DNA of 29,958 nucleotides from Trichodelitschia bisporula (lineage: Eukaryota). Location of the stretch: the NCBI GenBank assembly GCA_010356995.1, contig ML996707.1:496001-525958 (forward strand). The letters run 5' to 3'. The notes under the pieces are model-generated. The model was not told the origin of the DNA. It was given only the letters and a program-made list of their open reading frames with translations, and made no database searches. The position numbers were made by a program, and so were the translations under genes. Of the stretch, positions 17,125-29,958 are shown in pieces; the first letter of the stretch is position 1; every line of letters starts with the position of its first letter.

Positions 17125-17139
17125 ACATACGGCCATAGG
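17125..17139 (+). rRNA. 5' end fragment of a 5S rRNA gene, disrupted by element insertion
   Basis: ACATACGGCCATAGG matches the recalled ascomycete 5S 5' end (ACATACGACCATAGG). A TCATAAT box starts 29 nt upstream (17096). The rest of the 5S gene is not seen in the window. The match is short. Confidence 0.55.
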
Positions 17140-17164
17140 TCGGAGACTGCACCTACGTTCGCGT
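17127..17164. other. Putative hybrid recombination site (attL-like): 14-bp arm / 10-bp spacer / 14-bp arm
   Basis: ATACGGCCATAGGT-cggagactgc-ACCTACGTTCGCGT, 9/14 inverted complementarity. Positionally homologous to the perfect site at 29190. Confidence 0.55.
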
Positions 17165-17467
17165 TCCCAATTTGGTAAAACTCTGAATTTAGGCTAGCGT
17201 CATATATCCTTTGTCATCAGGCTTGGCGAATATTGTCTAATTAAAGTTGCCATTATTAAGCGCGCGACTACGGAAGGGAACTGTCGATTCTGCTTTTCAA
17301 CTTTTCAAAACTCCAGGACGACGAATAAGGCGTCCTCAGATGCCTTCGGTAGGGGCGTTGTTAGATGGTCCTTAGGAGGGCTGGGAGGTAAACTGGTTAA
17401 TGCTCTGACTTAAATATCCCCGAAGACCAGTGCTGGTTCAGAAGTCAACCTTCTGCCCTCGATCTAA

Positions 17468-19029
17468 ATGTCAACGCAAAACTTCGCTCACCTTCTCTCT
17501 AGGCTGAAAAGCCGCCGAGTGGAGGCAAGATACTCGAAATCGGCAAAACACAGCCTGAGCCGAATCCACCGCCAATGGAAAGAGTTCTGTGAAGCTGCAC
17601 GAGCCTCCGATATACCTAATGGAGATGCACTTTTCAGTGACCCTGAAAAGTATATGGCGGAGGCTGACCCTGAGCTGGTTATGTTGTTCCTGAAATGGAC
17701 TTTGGACACGCGAAAGGGAATCCGAAAAGAGATAACTATTAACGCCTACTATGACCGGTGGCACACCACTCGAAGACAAATACCGCATCACCGAGCGTGG
17801 AGCCTTGAGGACAGGAAGCGTGTTAATTCAGTAAGAGACTCATCTTGATAAACTCGAAACTAATTTTGTATAGTTCATCTCTTTGGATCTAGCCTCTGAG
17901 CATGGACTCAGTAGAGAACGACAGCCGAAGCCTGTCCTAAGCTTTGCCGATATTACCATCCTTCTCAACCACCTTTGGAAATGGGACAGGCTGCAGTATA
18001 GAAACGAGAGATTACGAGTCCAAGTGGCCTTGGTTTTACTGATTTCGATGGCTATGGCAACAAGGCCAGCGGCATTGCTTGAGACGGAGTACGCCAAAGA
18101 AGATCTTGGGGAACCACCCAAAGTACTTTGTTATGAGCATGTCAGGCTCTTCTTAGTCCGCGATTCCGAACGGATGAGACAGAAGCTGGTTCTGGAAATC
18201 AACCTTGTCTTTCACAAAGGATATGAGCGAAATCCCAAACCGTAACTTCAGTTTGGCATTTGCATGCTAATAATCTTCTACAAGAACCACCCACATTCTT
18301 ACCGAGACAGAGAATCTTATCGTTGATCCCATAATACTCCTGCTGGTTCTCGCATTCCAGGATGACGCCTTTAGGGGAGGAATCAAATCATATGAAGACA
18401 TTCAAAGACTTGTTATCCCGGATCATCTTGAGAGGTTGAAACTCTCCTGGCAGCCAAATATGCACGGCATTCCAGTGTTTCGTCAAGCAAAACCACGCAG
18501 CAAAGAGATGGAAAGCAGGAAGCCTTTCGCATATACGTCATATTTGCACTACATGCAACGCCTTGGTGCGGAGGCGGGGTTCCAGACTATGCTCACGCCT
18601 TACATGATTCGGCGCGGTGTTGGAGAGGCGCTTGAAAGTCAGTATGCTTCTTTCCACGTAGTAATTTAACATCATCGTCTGTAGATCCGCAACGGAGCAA
18701 CAACTTCAACAACTTATGGGTCATCGGCTTGATCGAACGTTCCAGTCCTATATCAACCGCGTAAGTCAAGTGCATACGCAGGCAGTCTTTGCCAATGAGG
18801 AGCCGGACCACGGGGCTATGGACCTGCTGTCACACCAAGCCGTCAACCGGGACCCGCGTGCCCAGCCGTCCAATATGGTGCTACGGCACCAGCCTGGTTA
18901 CAACTCTCAGCCCGGTCTTTCCCAGCTCTTGAAGAAAAGGGATGATGCAAAATTCGCAATTCTGATGACTGGGTCAACCGTCAGAGATGCACATATGAAC
19001 TGTCCTGATCTTGCTCAGCTGTATAAAAC
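17468..19029 (+). CDS. DUF3435-like tyrosine recombinase (Starship captain), truncated at the C-terminus by LTR insertion; introns 17831-17873, 18242-18284, 18642-18684
   Basis: Spliced frame is open for ~477 codons, with MATRPAALL (R), VFHKG (K), LLLVLAFQDDAF, LTPYMIRRG (R), QLMGH (H), TFQSY (Y). Confidence 0.88.
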
Positions 19030-19296
19030 TGTCATGGGAGGATACCATCTCTCCCATGTCAAATGGCCACATGTCCTGTATGGGTCACGTGACTCGGCAA
19101 GATTGATGCCGGATGCTGCAATTCCAGCCCCGGCTAGACTTGCCGGTGAGGGCTTGGCGCTGGCCTGTGCGCTAGCACCCCCAGCTCCCCCACGCTCCAC
19201 ATTCAGACGCGAAACCTTTACATAGTTCTTCAAGCTTTCAATGAATCTTATTCCACAACCAATGCTGTGCAGCCAGTGATTTGTGCGCCCCTGACA
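19030..19296 (+). mobile_element. Probable LTR of a Ty3/Gypsy-like retrotransposon (267 bp)
   Basis: Begins TGTCA and ends TGACA. Begins where captain-like sequence stops and is followed by a gag-like sequence. No matching TSD (AAAAC vs ATATC) and no second LTR seen. Confidence 0.65.
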
Positions 19297-19419
19297 ATAT
19301 CTAAGAACCATAAGCTAGAAGAGCCCAGCGCTACGTCTAAATGACTTATACTAAATATAAGTAATCTTAGGGCAGCGCCTACTATTAAAAGCGGTACCTC
19401 GATCTTAATCGATTAATCG

Positions 19420-19906
19420 TCCTACCAATGCTTCTGTTCTCTATCCCACCGAGCATGCCAAGCTCCACTACATCCTGTTCCGCACCAAAGGAAAGATGTC
19501 CGCTCCGATCGTCGGCCGCATAGGAAAGATAGCATGAATCATTACCAGTCTGCGGAGATGATCAAGGATCTCACTCAGGCCCTTGGTGATTATGACGCCA
19601 CCCGTCGTGCGGAACGTCGCCGCGACGATCGTTCCGACTTCCCGATGAAGGAGAACGAGGATCTCGGGAGTACATCACTCGGTTCGCTAGCGTGGTCAAC
19701 GACATCCCTTGGTACCATTATAGCCCGGGTGTCGAGAGGCAGAAAACCAATCTCTTCCGCCAGAACTTAACGAAGGAGATCCTTCAGGCTGTCTGCCACA
19801 TGGACGAGGACCTCGGCTTTGAAGCTATCCGCTGTGCTGCTGCCAACTACTATCATAACGCGCACCGTGACAGGGTTAGAAGATATATTGATCAGGCAGT
19901 AAGTTA
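19420..19906 (+). pseudogene. Frameshifted retrotransposon gag-like remnant
   Basis: Across frames: YPTEHAKLHYILFRTKGK...NHYQSAEMIKDLTQALGDYDATRRAE...YITRFASVVNDIPW...KTNLFRQNLTKEILQAV, resembling fungal Gypsy capsid regions. Confidence 0.55.
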
Positions 19907-20117
19907 GGGAGGTGGGTATTTCTAGTATAAGCTCCGACTACTTATCAAGTTAAAGATACTCCGAAGGAAGAAGAACCGGTAACTCCCTTTTAGCTCCATA
20001 CCATACCCTCCACGGTTTAGCAGAATAGACCTGGGGCAAAACTATTCGAGCGTCTAAGGCGACATATCCCCTACTGCTGAGCGGCCTACCGGTACTATAG
20101 CCTATACTCCCTCCACC

Positions 20118-20563
20118 TTCTAGCGGCCTACCTCCTACTTTATTAGGCGGCATATTCCCTACCACCTAGCGGCATATCCCCCACCAATCGGCACATCCCA
20201 TACCACCTAGCTGCGTATCCCCTACCACTTAGCGGCATAGCCCCTATTAAAGGTCAGTGTGGGTCCAAGGTGCCAGGGCTACCCGTAACAAGTCCTGAGC
20301 GAGCCCCCCGGGACTGTTTACTAGAGAAGCGCTCATAACTCTTAGGTGTACCCTGGACCCACATATGCGACATTGACCTTTAATAGGCCTGATACCGTAG
20401 TACCTAGCGGCGTATCCCCTACCACCTAGCGGCATATCCCCTACAACCTAGCGGTATATTCTCCACCTAGCGGCATATCCCCTCCCACCTAGCGGCATGT
20501 CCCCTACAATTTAGCGGCACATATCCTACTACCTAGCTGCATATCCCCTACCACTTAACGGCC
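20118..20563. repeat. Two blocks of a ~22-bp minisatellite (ACCTAGCGGCATATCCCCTACC) at ~20118-20246 and ~20402-20563; TpA-rich, RIP-like
   Basis: Units counted directly (~6 and ~7.5 copies). Both blocks end in ACCTAGCTGC(G/A)TATCCCCTACCACTTA(G/A)CGGC. Confidence 0.85.
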
Positions 20564-20575
20564 TAGACCGCTTCT

Positions 20576-20674
20576 GAATGGCCCTCGAGCGTCTGCAGCG
20601 CCTTTCCCGACCTGGCGTCCCACAGCCTAGGACGCCGGGTCGGGAAAGGCGCTGCAGACGCTCAAGGGCCATTC
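20576..20674. repeat. 45-bp inverted repeat made of head-to-head WD40 repeat units
   Basis: Arms 20576-20620 and 20630-20674, 2 mismatches, 9-nt loop. Confidence 0.85.
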
Positions 20675-21381
20675 GAGTGNNNNNNNNNNNNNNNNNNNNN
20701 NNNNNNNNNNNNNNNNNNNNNNNNNNNNNNNNNNNNNNNNNNNNNNNNNNNNNNNNNNNNNNNNNNNNNNNNNNNNNNNNNNNNNNNNNNNNNNNNNNNN
20801 NNNNNNNNNNNNNNNNNNNNNNNNNNNNNNNNNNNNNNNNNNNNNNNNNNNNNNNNNNNNNNNNNNNNNNNNNNNNNNNNNNNNNNNNNNNNNNNNNNNN
20901 NNNNNNNNNNNNNNNNNNNNNNNNNNNNNNNNNNNNNNNNNNNNNNNNNNNNNNNNNNNNNNNNNNNNNNNNNNNNNNNNNNNNNNNNNNNNNNNNNNNN
21001 NNNNNNNNNNNNNNNNNNNNNNNNNNNNNNNNNNNNNNNNNNNNNNNNNNNNNNNNNNNNNNNNNNNNNNNNNNNNNNNNNNNNNNNNNNNNNNNNNNNN
21101 NNNNNNNNNNNNCCGGCTCGGGAAAGGCGCTGCAGACGCTCGAGGGCCATTCGGAAGATTTCATGGCCGTGTCCTCCTGGTTGGACGGCAAACAGTCGCT
21201 AGGTTCCGGATCGGATTCTCCACGTTTGAGAGTTATCAAGGAATGGATAACCATATGCGCGGAAAAACGTCTTTGGCTTCCAGCCGAGTATCGCAGTCCG
21301 AGGACCGTCGCCGTTCACGGGGATAAGATTGGATTGGGGTATTCGTCCGGTCGAGTGCTGTGTATGGAATTCATTTGTTGA
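20628..21381 (+). pseudogene. C-terminal fragment of a HET-E-like NACHT-WD40 (NWD) NLR; WD repeats mostly hidden in the assembly gap
   Basis: *DAGSGKALQTLKGHS before the gap. After it: GSGKALQTLEGHS...EWITICAEKRLWLPAEYRSPRTVAVHGDKIGLGYSSGRVLCMEF, the typical NWD tail. No NACHT domain visible. Confidence 0.8.
20680..21112. other. Assembly gap (N run)
   Basis: Run of N. Confidence 1.
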
Positions 21382-21956
21382 AGTGTCCCTTGACCTCCTC
21401 CCCACCCACCTCCGTTGCGGTCTGAGCCCTTTTATACCTTTTTGAGAGTGAAAGTGGCAAGGGATTACAAATGGGAATGGTACGGCTTTGAAATCAAGCA
21501 CTCCAATAGCAAATGGTAACAGTGGCATACAAAGATATCGCCAGATCAGTGAAGTAATGGCTTCAATGCAATGGGGATCTGGAAACATCTGGAATTAGCC
21601 ATTCCTTCAGTGCATAGAGAAGGTATGATGGAATGTAGTGGCCGTGTTCAATGTTTGCCACTCCCAGCCACATGCTCGGCGCTTGTCCTCCATTCCCCTA
21701 TACGCACTTCCACACGCCCTTCCACATACACGTACCTCCCATACACACGCTCCCCCCACACACGCGCTGCTCCGGGTCCGTAAACAATCTGACATACTCG
21801 GGTCTATTTACCCGGCCTGGGTGCTCGCTCAGGCCTACCCCGGCCCTGACTGTCCAATTAACCATTTTGAATCGCTCATGAAGGGAATCACACTCCAGCC
21901 TCGCCTCGATCAACAGTGTAGCGAACAGGCCACGCCTGCTGTAGCCCAGGAGCCAA

Positions 21957-23920
21957 TCATGACCACAGCGCAAATTCTGGAACAACATCCTTGAGCATGT
22001 TGTCGAGAACAACGCACGTGGAAAATCCGGGATCGAAAACCACGAATAAGAGGTTTGGACACGTCGCTAAACGAACATTAGAGATCCGGACAAACGACAG
22101 AGGGAAGGTTGAACTTACGGAAGGACTTTGCTGGCCGAGACCTTCGGAAATCGACCACGATCCAGTCCTGAAAACTGAAAGAGGTGTAACGGCCTTCCCC
22201 GACAAACCGGTCGTAATGCTCCTGCAGTTGGATCCCATCCCGCAGCAATTCAATGCCCCAATGGACCTCAGAGATCACAAAGTCGATTCGCTGCCCGCCC
22301 AATTCCTTGCTGGAAAACTCCGGGGTGGGAATGACGCGTGCTCTGGTGACCTTGTATATCGTGCGGTAGAGTTCGGCGCCATAGGCAGCTTCTGGAGTCT
22401 TGGATTCTCGTCGTAGGGCATACCCACAAAACGACTTCAGGGCAGTCAAGACACACTCCCGTACGCTCTTGAATGGGAAAGAGAGGGTGAGTTGTGGAAC
22501 AACGGTCATCGCGGCAAACCTGGCTAAGGTTAGCTATAATTCGTTCAAAACAGTATAATGGACATAACAGCGATGAACTTCGGTCGGATAAGTATAGACC
22601 ATGGAATTGCCGTCTTTCACAACGGCGTGCAGGTAGCCCTTGACATAGCACATGCGAAGTGCTTCAGGATTTACGTCCTGTAGCCGAGCGAACCCTTCTG
22701 TCGCAACCTTGATGAGAACTTTGCGGGCATCGAGGTTCTGAAACGACTCATGAGGAAATCCGCGGTATGCAGCACAGCTTTGGATGACGTTTACGAGGCC
22801 ATCCGTATTGAACAAGAAATGCTCAAGGGAAGCAGACTGAATATTCTCTCCCTTTCTGGCGATCATTTTGCAATCCTGGATCATTGAAGGCTGAAGTCAG
22901 CAAGGCGCAACCGTACAGATTGCTAGGGAAAAGAATGAGACCCACATGGGATTCCAGGAAGTTCTCAATCAGGGCAGTCGCAAGGCCAATGTGACCCTCA
23001 GAAAACTTGAATAGCATGTCTAGGGCCTCATTCGAGATTGATGCGGATTTCGCCGTAGTCTTCTTCAACCCCCAGCTCATGAACTCTTCTAGCGAGAAAA
23101 ACATGCCCACGTGGATAAAAGTTGACGGACGTAGCCCGACAATGCAATTCTCGGGAAGTGTCAATGGAGTCAATGCACTCTCGTGATTGCCAAGGTCCGC
23201 CGAACTGCCATAGCAACAGGCCAAGACAAACTTGATACTTTGTGGTCTTGTTTTGAATTTCTCCAAGACAACCTTGATAGCCTCGTTCCAAAAGGGTGCA
23301 TCAGTGTAACTCGTCTGCCCTTCATCGAAAAGAATGTAGGCTGGAGTGCGAAGGACGTCTGCGTGGGCATCCAGCAATAGTTCCTTCAGCTGATGAAACC
23401 AGAGCCTCGTTGCCCCGTTAGGGTAACGGGAAAGAAGATGGACCTGATTGCCTTGGAGACGAAGGTAGTGATAGAGGAGGTCCATGACGCTGGTCTTTCC
23501 GGACGCGGGGGTGCCTCGAAGCTGAACGACACCGGTGTGATCAAGACGCTCGACAACAGCCTTCAGGAGGTTTATTCGGGGCTCCAGGCAAAGGTATTGT
23601 GCGACTTCATCGTAGGTCGGGATATCGAGTGGAATTCGCTCGCTCGCACCTCTCGCGATTGTGGCAAAGGATTCCTCTTGGGGCACTTCATTCTGGTTAG
23701 CTAGACCGGGGAAGGATGAGTTGCTGTCCTCACCAACGTCAATCCCTGAAGAGGGCAGTGCAGCAGCTGTAGTCGGCAGACTGGGCGTGTCGTGGATTGA
23801 GAATGCATGACCGCAAACTGTGCAGGTTGGATCACCGCCTGCGCCCGCCGGCGCCGAAGCCTGCATACAAAGGCACCCCATCATTCCTTGCCTGAAGCGG
23901 CATGGTCCACGGAACACCAT
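21957..23920 (-). CDS. Crinkler-type P-loop NTPase + PD-(D/E)xK restriction-endonuclease-fold protein with N-terminal Cys/His motif; three introns, one with a non-canonical donor
   Basis: N-terminal GCLC...CTVCGHAFSIH; Walker A RGTPASGKTS; Walker B ILFDEGQTSY; C-terminal EAAYGAELYR...TPEFS...RIDFVISEVHWGIELLRDG...EHYDRF...GRY...WIVVDFR. Confidence 0.8.
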
Positions 23921-23928
23921 GATGGGTG

Positions 23929-23988
23929 GGCTGGAAGGGCGTGAAGAGAGAGGGCGCCGGCTGGAAGGGTGTGAAGAGTGAGGGCGCC
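23929..23988. repeat. 30-bp tandem duplication just 5' of the NTPase-REase start
   Basis: GGCTGGAAGGGCGTGAAGAGAGAGGGCGCC / GGCTGGAAGGGTGTGAAGAGTGAGGGCGCC. Confidence 0.85.
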
Positions 23989-26405
23989 AAAATATGTTCA
24001 TGATGGATGATAGCGTCCCTAAATCTGGAGTTCTTGATGGCGACTGACGTGGGTACAGGCAGTACTGATGGTGTGAGTTGCTAGGCCTACGTGTTAAGGC
24101 AAGGTTCGGTTGCTTGAGAGCGAGCTTCCGGCCTTTGTTTATTCACCAAGCACATGGAACATCCTTCAATCAACGACACATACGTGTTTCCTTGGACGCA
24201 CGCAAAAAAAAATACCTATATCGACGCACGGATCGGATCCAAAGCTTCCAGCCAACCGATCATCACTTTGCCTTGATTGATACCACACGGAAGCAAGGCT
24301 ATGATGGTTAGAAGGGTTTCCGGCCGACGGGTTCTCTGTACAGCAAAGTGACGATCAGCCACGTTCCGACATAGCCACGCATACGAATCAAGCCACCGAA
24401 TCCACTCACTCGGTAGGTATCGGCCCGACTTTAATCCGAGAGTCTGTGCACTCTGCAGTCATGTCTTTCTCTGTCTCCCAGATGCCTCTGCCTCCCGGCG
24501 TAACGTTCGCTGACCTCAACGTATCGAGAACGGCTTCACTCTCAACGCCAAAGCGGCCGCGGAGTATACACTCATGGAGCCCCTGCCGGCGCTGAACATC
24601 CGCAACCGCAAGCGCAGCCTGGATGTGAGATCACGGCTGTGATGGCCATAGGCACTGGCTGTCTATGATCTGCCATGGCCGCAGCACCCATGACAGCAGC
24701 ATCCGTGAGATTACCTCGTTCAGCCTCGGCGGCACAAGTTACATCACCCGCCACGCAGCCAAGTCCCACCGGATCACACCCTCAGGGTCCCCGCGGCTCA
24801 CTACTGGCCAAGAGATTCTTCGACTCGAGCTCGTCCCGAATGACTGCATCCCATAGACCCCAGTCTGCTATCGACTTGAGCGTGAATATAACACGTGACC
24901 TCTCGCTGGCCATAGTGGCGGTGGCGGTGGCGGTGCACGACCTCCGAAGATCGTGGAACCAACTCGACTCGCTCGACGGGCCGCCCCTTCCCCGGCGGCG
25001 GCGACGGCACCACAACCGGCGGCAAGGGGCGCTCCGTCGAGGCGGGCGCCGAGGTGCTCAAGCGTATCGGCCGTACGTTCAAGGAGACGCTAGGGCTGAA
25101 TGACAGCGAGCAGGTCGAGTTCTCCGGGCATACGGACGCGGCGACGAGTGGCAGCACGCGCGCGAAGGCGAAGCTGTCGGTCTAGGCTGGTGCTGGTAGA
25201 TGTGTGCTGTAGACGGTTGAATGAGTAGTGGCGCAACAGGTGGTCGACACGACATGATCCCACCGTCCGCTGCTCACTGCCGCTACACAACTCTCATCAC
25301 ATCATCGTTATCAAGGGAGATGAATTAGTCTACCTGTCCAACGCCCACAGACAAACGCGGGGAATGACAGTTCTAGCTCATAACAGCCCAACAGCCAGAC
25401 CAACTCGCAAAGCCGAACGACGTGAAAAGGACAAGCAAGCAAAACTAAGCCTTCTCGCGATTCCACGACTTGGGGAAGTCTCTCTTCTCGTTGACGTCCT
25501 CACTGTTCGTCTTCTTCTTTTCCTTCTTCTTCTCGGACAGCGGCGCCTTGCCATCTTCGCTGCTAGTCTTCTTCTTGTCCTTCTTGTCGGCTGTCTTCTC
25601 CTTCAAGTTAGGCACGCCATCACGGCCTCCACACACTCACTATCGCAGTGATTCCACCCGTTGCGTGAGGCGCATTGAGCATTTCTGTCCATAGGTGGGA
25701 GGTGTGGTGAGTGAAACCAACATCTGCTTGTGGCTATCGCGGTCGCGCCAAGCGCCCGCGCTACAGCAGGTGAATGGTCGTGCCTTCCTGTCCTTCTACA
25801 GTTCAAAGTCTACATGCTCTCCGCCGTGACAGGTGGAGATCATCCGCAGGAATCCATGGAAGATATGGACTGTCCGCCGTCGGTTCAACTAAAGTTGGAA
25901 GTCTGGTAGAGTCAGGATTGTCACTTTGCCGCGACAGTGATCTAAGATCGGTCCTTGTAACAGTAGTCATTGAGTCGTGAAACGTATTAAAAATCCAGGT
26001 TGTGATATCCGTGATTGCGCTCCCAACCCTCGCCCGGCCCAAGACGCATGAGCAAACATGAATACAGTCAAATATGGATGGGGAGGCAAAATTCCGCGGA
26101 AGAGAGGTCGAAACCGAGAACAAAAAATCTATCACGTCTTGTACATGTCCATTGCGTTTCTCGTGCCTGATTCGAAAGCATGGCTATCCGTTGAGGGATA
26201 TCCATCGGGCCACATATGCGTCGGGAACCTCATCTTCGCCGAGACGTCATGGGGCCCGCGGGAAGCCACCTCGCCCGGGCCAGCACAAAAAGCACACAAA
26301 CTGGGTCCGTCTGACATGGAGTCCCAACATGAGTCCCGGTACCAGCTGTGGGAGCCGATGAGTCCGGTATCCATCATCGGCATGGTTGCCAATCCATGGA
26401 CAAGT

Positions 26406-26506
26406 TCCACCAACATGGCACGGATGTTGAACCACGCGCTTCCGTCAGGATCCACCAACATGGGATGGAAGTTGGGTTATGCATTTCCGTCGAAGTCCAC
26501 CAACAG
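26406..26506. repeat. Degenerate 45-bp period repeat
   Basis: TCCACCAACA recurs at 26406, 26451 and 26496, and TTCCGTC recurs at the same spacing. Confidence 0.65.
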
Positions 26507-26603
26507 CATAGCTCTCCATCCAGAACATGGACAGCCCATACGGAGCACGGGAGGGACGTTGAATCACCCATTCCGCCGCGCAACTTGATGGCAAGCATAG
26601 AGG

Positions 26604-27850
26604 TCATCGCTTTGAGTTCCTCTCAAGGGCCCTGGTTTCCACATCACCATCTTCGGTCAAAAGCACGGTCTTAGCCTGGCCCTCCCTGTCCAGATTCAGA
26701 TCAGTGGCCCTCCGTGCAATGTTCATGACAATCTCCTGGTCCTGCATGGCCGTGCTTTGGCCATCTATGTCCATCTCGTCTTCGTCCTTGACCCGAAGCT
26801 GGTCCGTCCGGTCGTCGCCGTCCTGGGTCAAGACGCGGACATTGCTCTTTCCTTTGATGGCCGCACGCGACCGCTTCTCGGCAAGCGAGTCCTTAGGCAG
26901 ACGGGAGGCAACTGCGAGTCTTACTAGACAGAGTTGTTGAAACCTACATTCAAAGGGAACAATAATGTTCCAGTGCATTTGCATGACTCTCTCGAACTCA
27001 TCCCGTTCGAGCGTGCTCTTGTCGACAACAACTTTGAAAGTTTAGCGGCCTGGAAGGGAAGGGAAGGTGAAGCATACTTCGAAAGAGATATCAGTCTGCA
27101 TCGGCTCAGGCAGCGAGGCATCCGCCATGACGAGGTCGACTTCCTCATCAACACTTCCTGGTGTCATGGCACCTGCGCTAAGGCTTGGACTGGCAAAGTT
27201 TGCGACGACGTAGAACTGCTTGTTCGCCTGATCGGATCCAATGTATTGTTTGTCCTGAAGACGTTAGCCCAATGCCGGCCGAGGTGAAGTGCGGTGGTTG
27301 TTACAGCGGCCAGCCGATGCATCAGCCATAAGACGCGACCGGCTCGGATGATAGAGGTGCTTGCCCGTTCAATCAAGCATTCATCGTCGTCCACACCCAT
27401 CCCTTTACCCTCGAACCAGTCGCTGGGATAGTAGCCATCGGCAGCATAAATCTGGCCCCGCAGCTTAAAGTCCTCGGGCAGAGGTCCATTGGCCCCCCTC
27501 TGGTCGCACGAAGTCTGGCGCTTGATAACTCACATCCTCTCTTTCCGATTTGTCCAGAGCATTGGCATAATCGCAGAGCGCAGACCAAGGCTGAGCCCCT
27601 AAGATGCGGTTCGCAGATGACGTATACTTGTTGGACTGGAGAAGCTGAGAACAGATGAAACAAAGGTTTCTGTTGATTGATGTAGACTGAACTGTCGAGT
27701 GTACCATGTGGGCAACTCGTACTATATAGGAAGTATGAAACAGGAGTGGCGTCGAGCCAAAGATACGATGAAACAAGACAATGGAAGTAAGCAATCCCGA
27801 GCGCTAATGGATACCGGCTACAAAGATACCGAACGCGAAGTGATACAGGA
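26604..27850 (-). pseudogene. Est1/Ebs1/SMG5-6-7-like pseudogene with C-terminal PIN-like domain; 5' limit uncertain
   Basis: PWSALCDYANAL...DFVRPEG, then a frameshift at the C6 run 27493-27498, then PLPEDFKLRGQIY...YYPSDWF...DDDECLIERAS...RAGRVLWLMHRLAA. Intron 27255-27304. Then VVVDKSTL...WNIIVPF...TVLLTED (PIN-like). Confidence 0.7.
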
Positions 27851-29189
27851 ACTTACAATATCAGAAGGCTGTAACAAATGGGAATCCGTCTAACAGGTTA
27901 CCTATGAATTTCCCTAAGATTCTGGAGGGAGAAGAAGAATTTACCATGCTGTTGCCGCTCGATGCCCAGGTGAAACGAACTGGCGAAGGATGCCTGGTAT
28001 CGCCCCATAAGCCTCTGAAGGAATCTTGTGGGTATGGTTGCCTATCATTGCCGCTCCCGATCCTGATGAGAGCAAATGATATCCTGGTTGCGTGTCGTCC
28101 CCACTTGAGGCTCCCAAAGGAGGGCACTGACTGCAGCTTAAGGAATTACTGTCTATGGCGCGAGGTAGAATCTCTACGGGTCGGTTCATGTCTGTGACGG
28201 AGGTTATGAATCATTTGTACATCTCTTACGCGCCCAGGAGTGTGCTAAGCGCTGATAGTGTTAGCTGATGTCACTTTTAGAGCGGTAAAGCAAACCAAGC
28301 TCCTCAGCATCCCTGGAGGGTAGACACCCTGCAAGCGGAGGGCGTAGGGAGGGGCGGAAAGCATCTATGCTGCATATCAATCACCGTGGCTCCCTAAACT
28401 AGAGGCAGCTCTACACTCTAGGCTGGCGTTTGAACTGCGGGGGTGTTCAAATAATGCGGCAGCCAGGAGGGAAGGCGAGTCCACCAGATAACCAAGTCTT
28501 CCGCCGGCGGGCTTTCACTCTCTGTCCGAGCTGGGTATGTATGCCAAAGCTGAGGCGGGGGCGGATGAGGTACGCACAGTAATGGCTGTGGCCTACGCCG
28601 CACTGCACCTTTACGCCATACCTACTGAGCCATATCAAATTGCGCTTTACGTGTGACTCAGTGGTTCACCTATCATCCAGCCCCATAACACGGTTTCATC
28701 GGATATGCTACTGGATTTTTGTTAGCCCTACCCTCAGTCTCGAAAAGTCTGAGTATGAGCTGTTCGTAAAATGCAGTACTCTCGGCCTTGAGGCCAGGCG
28801 GTGAATGGAGGACACAAAAAGAAAATCCAGAAGAACTTCGCATCGGACGAGGCTGGTTGATCTACACGCTTCCGAACTTTACAGGTCGACTCGTGGCCAT
28901 AGCAGCGTGGTGAGCATATGAGGCGTGCGGTCAAGTGCATCTCCTATCGACAGGGAGTAGTTGATGCGGGAAGTGGGTTGGTGGTGATTCCAAATTAATA
29001 TTGCCCATGGATTCTTGGCGTTTAAATTCCGCTGGCGTTATTAGATGGAATTTGCGATGGGATTCAACGGTATGACCAGGGAGGCTTGTTTTCAGCGAGG
29101 GTAGCTGACATAAGTTATATAACGTAATTTACAATCTTTGAGGCTTAGACACGGAGAGGAACAACTAGGTCCGGATTGCCTATTTCGGC

Positions 29190-29227
29190 ACGCGACCATA
29201 GATCTGAGAATGTATCTATGGTCGCGT
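29190..29227. other. Perfect 14-bp inverted repeat with 10-bp spacer; putative recombinase att site at the junction of two elements
   Basis: ACGCGACCATAGAT-ctgagaatgt-ATCTATGGTCGCGT. Confidence 0.7.
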
Positions 29228-29958
29228 CCCAATTTGGTAAAACTCTGAATTTGCACTGCCGTCATGTATCCTTTGTCATTAGGCTTGGCGAATATCGTCC
29301 AATTAAAGTTGCCATTATTAAGCGCGCGACTACGTAAGGGAATTGTCGATTCTTCTTTTCAACTTCTCAAATTTCCAGGACGACGAATAAGGCGTCCTTA
29401 GATGCCTTCGGTAGGGGCGTTGTTAGATGGTCCTTAGGAGGGCTAGGAGGTAAACTAGTTAATGCTCTGACTTAAATATCCCCGAAGACCACTGCAGGTT
29501 CAGAAGTCAACCTTCTGCCCTCGATCTAAATGTCGACGCAAAACTTCGCTCACCTTCTCTCTAGGCGGAAAAGCCGCCGAGTGGAAGCAAGATACTCAAA
29601 ATCGTCAAAACACAACCTGAGCCGAACCCACCATCAATGGAAAGAGTTCTGTGAAGCTGCACGAACCTCCGATATTCCTAATGGAGATGCACTTTTCAGT
29701 GACCCTGAAAAGTGTATGGCGGAGGCTGACCCTGAGCTGGTTATGTTGTTCCTGAAATGGACTTTGGACACGCGAAAGGGAATCCGAAAAGAGATAACTA
29801 TTAACGTCTACTATGACCGGTGGCACGCCGCTCGAAGACAAATACCGCATCACCGAGTGTGGAGCCTTGAGGACAGGAGGCGTGTCAATTCAGTAAGAGA
29901 CTCATCTTGATAAACTCGAAACTAATTTTGTATAGTTCATCTCTTTGGATCTAGCCTC
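29204..29958 (+). mobile_element. Left end of a second related Starship-like element (runs off the window)
   Basis: Direct repeat of ~17141-17896, including the 5' non-coding leader and captain exon 1/intron 1. Confidence 0.8.
29530..29958 (+). CDS. Second DUF3435-like captain tyrosine recombinase, 5' part only
   Basis: Exon 1 differs from the copy at 17468 at 12 of 121 residues by manual comparison; same first intron. Confidence 0.88.

Follow-up and report, generated by a model that had tools for sequence, protein, structure and literature searches.

Among Starships, insertion into 5S rRNA genes is already documented. The available parts of PMC11162782 describe 5S targeting (at least five sites), direct repeats (DRs) of 6-16 bp and occasional terminal inverted repeats (TIRs), and ascribe to both repeat types a presumable but undemonstrated part in excision and integration. 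Voyager of Macrophomina phaseolina inserts 20 bp from the 5S start (10.1101/2021.12.13.472469, in part) and is given as fam10 with an exact 12-bp direct repeat in the accessible portion of PMC9156397, and 5S hotspots for Starships are described in Aspergillus fumigatus (10.1101/2024.06.28.601215, in part). DRs have been argued to be homology carried by the element (PMC10104507, available sections). In the accessible text on Hephaestus, the circle joins the 3′ end to the 5′ end upstream of the captain, and this junction suffices for captain-dependent integration (10.64898/2026.09.21.753150). How captains recognize Starship ends and exchange strands is an open question in the field.

The locus described here lies in a window of 29,958 nucleotides (the whole stretch of DNA analysed) on contig C21, a label of this analysis, of a 25.8-Mb assembly, which is the genome searched. 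[quoted passage not shown] Unlike Voyager with its exact repeat, the two end spacers of one element share 3-6 of 10 bases in 18/18 pairs and are identical in none, the ends being paired by nearest same-strand coordinates with most interiors unread. The elements are mostly 6-12 kb by coordinates, unlike the 5S-targeting Starships compared. The reverse complement of the Voyager DR starts like spacer bases 4-10 of some 5S variants in this genome, a resemblance suggesting that Voyager may use the same 5S neighbourhood in the opposite orientation. The Hephaestus junction belongs to a transient circle with a TTAC repeat, whereas here stacking has made a junction of this sort a fixed part of the chromosome; the available text on Hephaestus (10.64898/2026.09.21.753150) makes no mention of tandem, inverted repeat, 5S rDNA, mismatch or heteroduplex. 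We found no literature on Starship att geometry, inverted 5S arms, mismatched end spacers or head-to-tail stacks, although table S13 of PMC11162782 (curated DRs) and bioRxiv supplements may bear on the point. 5S targeting, TIRs and circular intermediates are known, and it is the att anatomy and the spacer rule that look unreported.

More than 20 insertions in one target, with an internal marker of host versus element (helix II of 5S rRNA), are available in this one genome. From them come a definite consensus for the half-site and predictions both of where the cuts fall and of how well mismatched spacers are tolerated. Fungal engineering, too, has an interest in a recombinase whose target is a conserved gene present in many copies.

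Sites of the loxP/FRT type have a 13-8-13 layout. Like loxP/Cre, FRT/Flp and dif/XerCD, the sites here combine two inverted arms and an asymmetric spacer with a tyrosine recombinase, but loxP, FRT and dif are identical in both partners, whereas here there are four different arms, which come from the 5S gene or from the element ends, and the spacers are unlike. Recombination at loxP and in lambda needs spacer homology (PMC2817482, in part). Judged by its sites, the system looks integrase-type (attP x attB) and not resolvase-type. The integrases of Tn916/Tn1549 and CTnDOT likewise act on inverted ends across a variable crossover region (5-7 nt in Tn1549) with minimal homology (PMC5871717 and PMC2817482, available parts), and the crossover region here also varies in sequence and in length: 18/18 pairs differ, and 12 left ends, family B among them, have an 11-bp spacer versus 10 bp in the target. 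Tn1549 is bacterial and enters loose AT-rich targets, in contrast to the specific gene target here. Both heteroduplex outcomes are expected of a Tn916-type system, and under a simple model of this kind roughly half of the left ends should carry host spacers; here a single outcome prevails, and the observed bias does not fit the model.

The Palindrome and Its Two Arms

The earlier note had described a perfect 14-10-14 inverted repeat, and the window sequence bears it out: 29190-29227 reads ACGCGACCATAGATCTGAGAATGTATCTATGGTCGCGT, with arms at 29190-29203 and 29214-29227 that pair at 14/14 positions around a 10-bp spacer. The copy 1 site (17127-17164) has the same geometry with 9/14 pairs, just as claimed, and both sites lie about 320 bases 5′ of the captain start. 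Similarity between the two copies had been said to begin exactly at the motif; it does begin within it (29193/17130), 3 bases inside the left arm. The supposed covariation of the inner arm bases fails. The two left arms differ in nature (5S nt 1-16 versus an element right end), and at the position claimed to covary the 5S-flanked left ends of the copy 2 subfamily (L006, L009 and L011) are all unpaired, with G opposite T; over the 24 5S-flanked left ends, 18 pair at this position and 6 do not.

The palindrome is very probably the right end of one element (element 1), a spacer and the left end of another (element 2), stacked in a 5S rRNA gene. All features below are on the forward strand unless stated otherwise. 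The left arm of the palindrome corresponds to the right terminal arm (TIR) of element 1 (29188-29203, with the perfect 14-bp part at 29190-29203), and is followed by the 10-bp spacer or crossover region (29204-29213) and by the left terminal arm (TIR) of element 2, of subfamily A2 (29214-29229). Element 1 (17143-29205, about 12 kb, with an N gap at 20680-21112) extends from attL in a 5S gene to this junction. Its attL consists of 5S nt 1-16 (17125-17140), which is the 5′ fragment of the disrupted target and the left arm of the copy 1 site and is identical to intact 5S starts (RF00001), a spacer (17141-17150) whose bases 1-2 are of host type and bases 3-10 of element type by the family rule, and the left terminal arm of element 1, of subfamily A1 (17151-17166), which makes 11/14 pairs with its own right arm. 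Element 2 starts at 29206 and occupies the rest of the window (to 29958). Its right end and the closing 5S 3′ half were not found on C21, searched to the contig end at 530595; on this contig, element 2 runs into an N stretch and then a copia-type pol frame before the contig ends.

The assignment of the arms comes from other copies in the genome. Positions 29170-29211 are 85% like the right ends L100 and L079, both of which abut 5S 3′ halves, and the left-arm motif has seven exact matches in the genome, five at right ends before a 5S 3′ half and two at right-end/left-end junctions. Likeness to right ends is limited to about 40 bases, and a BLAST-type search with 28300-29215 returned only itself. 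On the other side, L006, L009 and L011 carry the left-arm sequence of element 2 behind 5S nt 1-16 and a spacer. Among the left ends of family A, 12/15 (copy 1 included) follow 5S nt 1-16, and the palindrome, L002 and L003 follow non-5S sequence. The 50-60 bases upstream of L002 match right ends L101/L102, and those upstream of L003 match L035, all of which abut 5S nt 27 onward. Because such upstream sequences occur elsewhere as right ends before 5S, the palindrome is read as a right end, a spacer and a left end. A full stack is present on contig C3, where a family-B left end joined to a 5S 5′ half (L105), a junction (L002) and a right end with a 5S 3′ half (L100) succeed one another, and the genome has a third right-end/left-end junction besides the palindrome and the C3 stack. 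The explanation as a whole, two 5S-rDNA-targeting Starships head to tail, is probable. The element boundary, when checked against the motif, falls inside it; the view of a loxP/FRT-like, self-contained site at one element end has to be given up, since the two arms belong to two different partners, each either the 5S gene or an element end. The arms are ordinary Starship TIRs, and the structure is that expected of the junction in an excised circle (attP).

The palindrome could also be a true attP kept from a single A2 element, so that both arms belong to the same element, after entry of a circle by homologous recombination with a resident relative or after LTR-LTR joining of two elements. We consider this unlikely. 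It would suit the pairing of the junction at 14/14, as compared with 11/14 for the own ends of element 1 and 13/14 for the own-end TIRs of both paired A2 elements; in the window, the solo LTR at 27629-27896 lacks the 5-bp target duplication that the same LTR has in L002 and L006, and 27897-29205 may derive from another element. But a chimera test for homologous integration of a circle found no switch between the bases diagnostic of A1 and A2 over the initial ~550 bases of the two copies, and the upstream element on C3 has an unrelated family-B left end (L105), so homologous recombination at the captain is impossible there. Moreover, end types are mixed across elements, and a good match is therefore possible by chance pairing of related ends. 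Such an origin would alter the history of the site, not its nature. The 14/14 pairing stems from the good fit between the TIRs of subfamily A2.

The 5S rRNA Gene as Target

The family inserts into 5S rDNA at nt 17-26: in this genome 24 left ends come after 5S nt 1-16, and 22 right ends come before nt 27. There are 47 5S matches (RF00001) in the genome. A search with the 5S 3′ part gave 72 places, and the 67 examined comprise 42 intact genes, 22 right ends and 3 dropped sites (two odd intact-like genes and one N-truncated). A search with the element start gave 22 matches, which reduce to 13 distinct left ends (anchored past the arm) and, with 2 diverged ones, make up the 15 of family A; 12 of 20 unpaired 5S 5′-half candidates were read, and L020 yielded no left end. 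Paralogous intact 5S genes were used as empty sites, all within this one genome. An Rfam scan of the window gave no match, a 5S fragment of 16-18 bases being too short for it; the fragment was recognized by comparison with the 5S genes of this genome.

The variable nt 17-26 of intact 5S genes lie between two arms, nt 1-16 and nt 27-42, which in the most frequent patterns can pair at 10-11 of 16 positions. Of the 869 geometries tried within the 5S gene, those on the axis nt 21|22 score best. The half-site consensus, read toward the spacer from 41 5S left, 41 5S right, 22 right-end and 27 left-end arms, has CGG at 6-8, mostly A at 11, and GGT at 14-16 (CGG..A...GGT). The arm-spacer-arm geometry is present at every kind of site (target, left junction and right junction), and four arms with a common half-site surround one spacer axis and are reassorted in attL and attR. 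This layout appears to be that of a tyrosine-integrase att system, with the 5S gene as the putative attB, the two disrupted ends as attL and attR, and the stacked junctions as attP-like sites. Because the geometry holds at target, left and right junctions alike, the palindrome is most likely a core recombination site of the captain, a putative role to which we attach high confidence. Of the proposal that it is the core att site of this captain family, one part stands, for the motif holds the boundary and its geometry recurs at all kinds of site; the other does not, for there is no single conserved site and the spacer differs between partners.

With at least 22 right-junction 5S halves versus 42 intact genes among the examined sites, a large share of the 5S genes is disrupted. 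The 5S variants of the genome are highly diverse at nt 17-26, the crossover region. Several right junctions (L100, L101, L102, L079 and L035) score 61-72 bits in Rfam as near-whole 5S genes, owing to the likeness of the right arm to 5S nt 5-17. A count of intact 5S genes could include them by mistake, and from their sequence, transcription from the internal promoter might be conceivable.

Spacers and the Place of Crossover

In 5S rRNA, nt 17-21, which are spacer bases 1-5, pair with nt 57-61 in helix II. The 3′ strand at attR therefore records the host's original spacer bases. Helix II is well kept in the 42 intact genes, with 6 unpaired of 210 positions, and in 19/22 cases the 5S half at a right end departs from its closest intact gene at 0-5 of 74 bases. 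Spacer base 2 (partner nt 60) is unpaired in 0/42 intact genes versus 9/22 right ends, and base 4 is unpaired in 0/22 right ends (L086 counted after indel correction at bases 2 and 4); G-U wobble hides several A1 cases in this marker. Among the 18 paired elements, the host base is found in attL at base 1 in 1/1 informative cases and at base 2 in 6/6, and in attR at base 3 in 7/9 and at base 4 in 2/2. Base 5 is contrary, with the host base in attL in 2/2 informative cases and 4/22 right ends unpaired there, probably owing to decay after insertion. These results suggest that the crossover is mostly after spacer base 2 (29205|29206 in the palindrome) and further right in two elements. The latter are the two base-3 exceptions (L011/L101 and L002/L100), both of subfamily A2 like the palindrome, with the exchange point past base 3 and before base 9. 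One heteroduplex outcome is seen at base 3 in 7 pairs and the opposite one in 2, for which later mutation is an alternative.

Both outcomes are possibly explained by a staggered pair of cuts, with one strand cut after base 2 and its partner after base 8, symmetric in the 10-bp spacer and leaving a 6-bp overlap; the symmetric second position would be 29211|29212 in the palindrome and rests on two paired elements, for which decay could also account. The exact cuts 2|3 and 8|9 are accordingly offered as a tentative placement, somewhat short of an even chance. That strand exchange tolerates spacer mismatch is fairly likely. Right-end spacers at bases 3-10 are within one base of an intact 5S spacer in 21/22 cases, and left-end spacers are fixed by family, reading GAGA[ACG]TG[CT] in 15/15 ends of family A and CAGACATAT in 10/11 of family B; a host spacer in full is found at 0/11 family-B left ends. 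AGA at spacer bases 4-6 is common to both ends in 13/18 pairs, and some spacer homology may be needed.

The strong bias toward family spacers at left ends and host spacers at right ends would also follow from the exchange of a single strand pair after spacer base 2, resolved by replication and with no second cut, for which integron cassettes and CTX-phi offer a precedent of one-strand exchange with replicative resolution (PMC3458562 and PMC3442271, in part). We consider it unlikely. The opposite outcome in the two A2 pairs, L011/L101 and L002/L100, speaks against it, and the 5S half of L011/L101 has 0 differences from an intact gene. The copy 1 site and the 5S target neither need nor form a hairpin, and Hephaestus, in the available parts of PMC10104507 and 10.64898/2026.09.21.753150, excises footprint-free and integrates from a double-stranded plasmid circle.

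It is improbable that these are ordinary Starship ends, with TIRs on either side of a brief direct repeat (AGA, 5 bp at most), a homology-dependent crossover, spacer differences due to later mutations and incidental 5S arms. DRs and TIRs are the published architecture (PMC11162782, available parts). Here own right and left arms form TIRs that pair at 7-13 of 14 positions (mean 9.7, 18 paired elements); the partly alike end spacers with their AGA run, L011/L101 being alike at bases 4-8, are ambiguous as direct repeats, and right arms also resemble the 5S gene, as noted above. A crossover in bases 4-6, however, predicts the host base 3 at the left, and it is found at the right in 7/9 informative pairs. 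Random mutation is also unfit as an explanation because left-end spacers are fixed per family over 26 loci and those of family B differ in length from the target.

Hairpin Formation and Support for the Junction

As single-stranded DNA the palindrome folds with a z of -6.6, equalled by 0/200 shuffles. The copy 1 site forms no hairpin fold (z 0.46), and hairpin recognition as a general rule was rejected for this reason. A contig of 1370 bases from sequencing run X1 spans 27866-29235 with 0 differences and at single-copy depth, reaching 22 bases beyond the spacer in a sample that may be the assembly's own source; a mis-join of the assembly is unlikely because this contig crosses the site. Although element ends are multi-copy and N stretches lie near on the contig, a chance palindrome or mis-joined repeats are scarcely credible, given that 0.004 perfect inverted repeats (arm of at least 14, spacer 0-30) are expected analytically in the window, that a single-copy contig crosses the site and that two more junctions share its form. 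Among the sequencing runs, which are two runs of one sample, no second strain carrying this DNA was found, and the run contigs show no joint fitting excision or a circle, either of which such contigs cannot exclude.

A Model of Integration and Stacking

The following sequence of events would account for the arrangement. The element would excise as a circle joining right arm, spacer and left arm, as in Hephaestus, and captain monomers, by analogy with other tyrosine recombinases, would bind both arms of attP and of the 5S gene. The captain would then pair attP with the 5S pseudo-palindrome and swap strands across a mismatched spacer, like the Tn1549 integrase and IntDOT, with staggered cuts probably after bases 2 and 8 and a heteroduplex later settled by replication or repair. 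Because attL and attR each keep two usable arms, a later circle could integrate in either and leave a stack with a right-end/left-end junction. From the Hephaestus promoter result it is predicted that such a junction may raise the expression of captain 2.

A wider reading, which we hold tentatively and as a whole would not put at even odds, is that the captains of this lineage are eukaryotic mismatch-tolerant integrases that read the 5S pseudo-palindrome nt 1-16/27-42. The 10-11-bp spacer would be cut after base 2 and before the last two or three bases, no more homology than the central AGA would be needed, and attL and attR would be reused as landing pads. The result would be integron-like stacks in 5S genes, each junction recreating attP and maybe activating the downstream captain; captain-less family B would use the same enzyme, and excision from stacks would reshuffle ends between families.

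Captains, Element Content and Related Elements

The first gene of element 1 is a DUF3435 tyrosine recombinase, captain 1 (17468-19222), which starts 325 bases inside the left end and points inward; as in Starships, it is accompanied by a specific target site with defined boundaries. It comprises four exon-sized frames covering profile positions 3-316 of 418, with an uncertain 3′ end, and PF11917 is above cut-off in three frames (17874-19222). The third frame gave no match against longer proteins, and four matches, one of them close, against a representative protein library. Exon 1 of captain 2 (29530-29895) matches P0005 at 91%, and the gene leaves the window into an N stretch. Past this stretch lies a copia-type pol open frame on the minus strand (L104, C21:527400-530595), and captain 2 may be interrupted. 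P0005, the nearest named captain, is a DUF3435 protein annotated as Trichodelitschia bisporula, a dothideomycete. In the available supplement of PMC11162782 its gene is labelled fam01, the family of the Phoenix captain (a label, not a tree), and another captain of the species has its family as n.d.; fam01/Phoenix is tied mainly to AT-rich sites in that source, in contrast to the 5S target here. DR-based annotation can miss such elements: the species of the nearest named captains has 0 called in table S8 of the same source. Two metagenome scans, with captain 2 exon 1 and with P0005, found no relative.

What is read as the solo LTR is a TG...CA element of 268 bp whose ends carry short inverted repeats, present at window 27629-27896, L002 1197-1465 and L006 2053-2319. 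In L002 and L006, where the captains are interrupted by it, 5-bp target duplications flank it; their absence from the window hints that two LTRs recombined within element 1, which may be composite because of the N gap and this missing duplication. A nested transposon at 19040-27896 was considered and dropped, as no terminal repeats were found. Element 1 also contains an array of ~22-bp tandem repeats (20059-20565), and around the N gap (20558-21170) there are inverted and direct copies of a short repeat-protein-like segment with high read depth, a pattern that may have arisen from faulty assembly of a repeat gene present in many copies; the segment's perfect arms, 26 bp long, are at 20587-20663. 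Cargo-like frames at 22081-24142 on the minus strand give a weak nSTAND3 NTPase match, below cut-off.

Family-B left ends, found at 13 places (e.g., L105-L115), have an 11-bp spacer, insert at this 5S site too and have right-end types in common with family A. In searches scoring the best candidates only, no P0005-like or DUF3435 match was found beside them, and judging from their ends, family B possibly consists of non-autonomous elements moved in trans. A third end type is seen in L116/L086 (C13:320312-329456), which has the same 5S site, an 11-bp left spacer and a more distant captain (44% to P0005).
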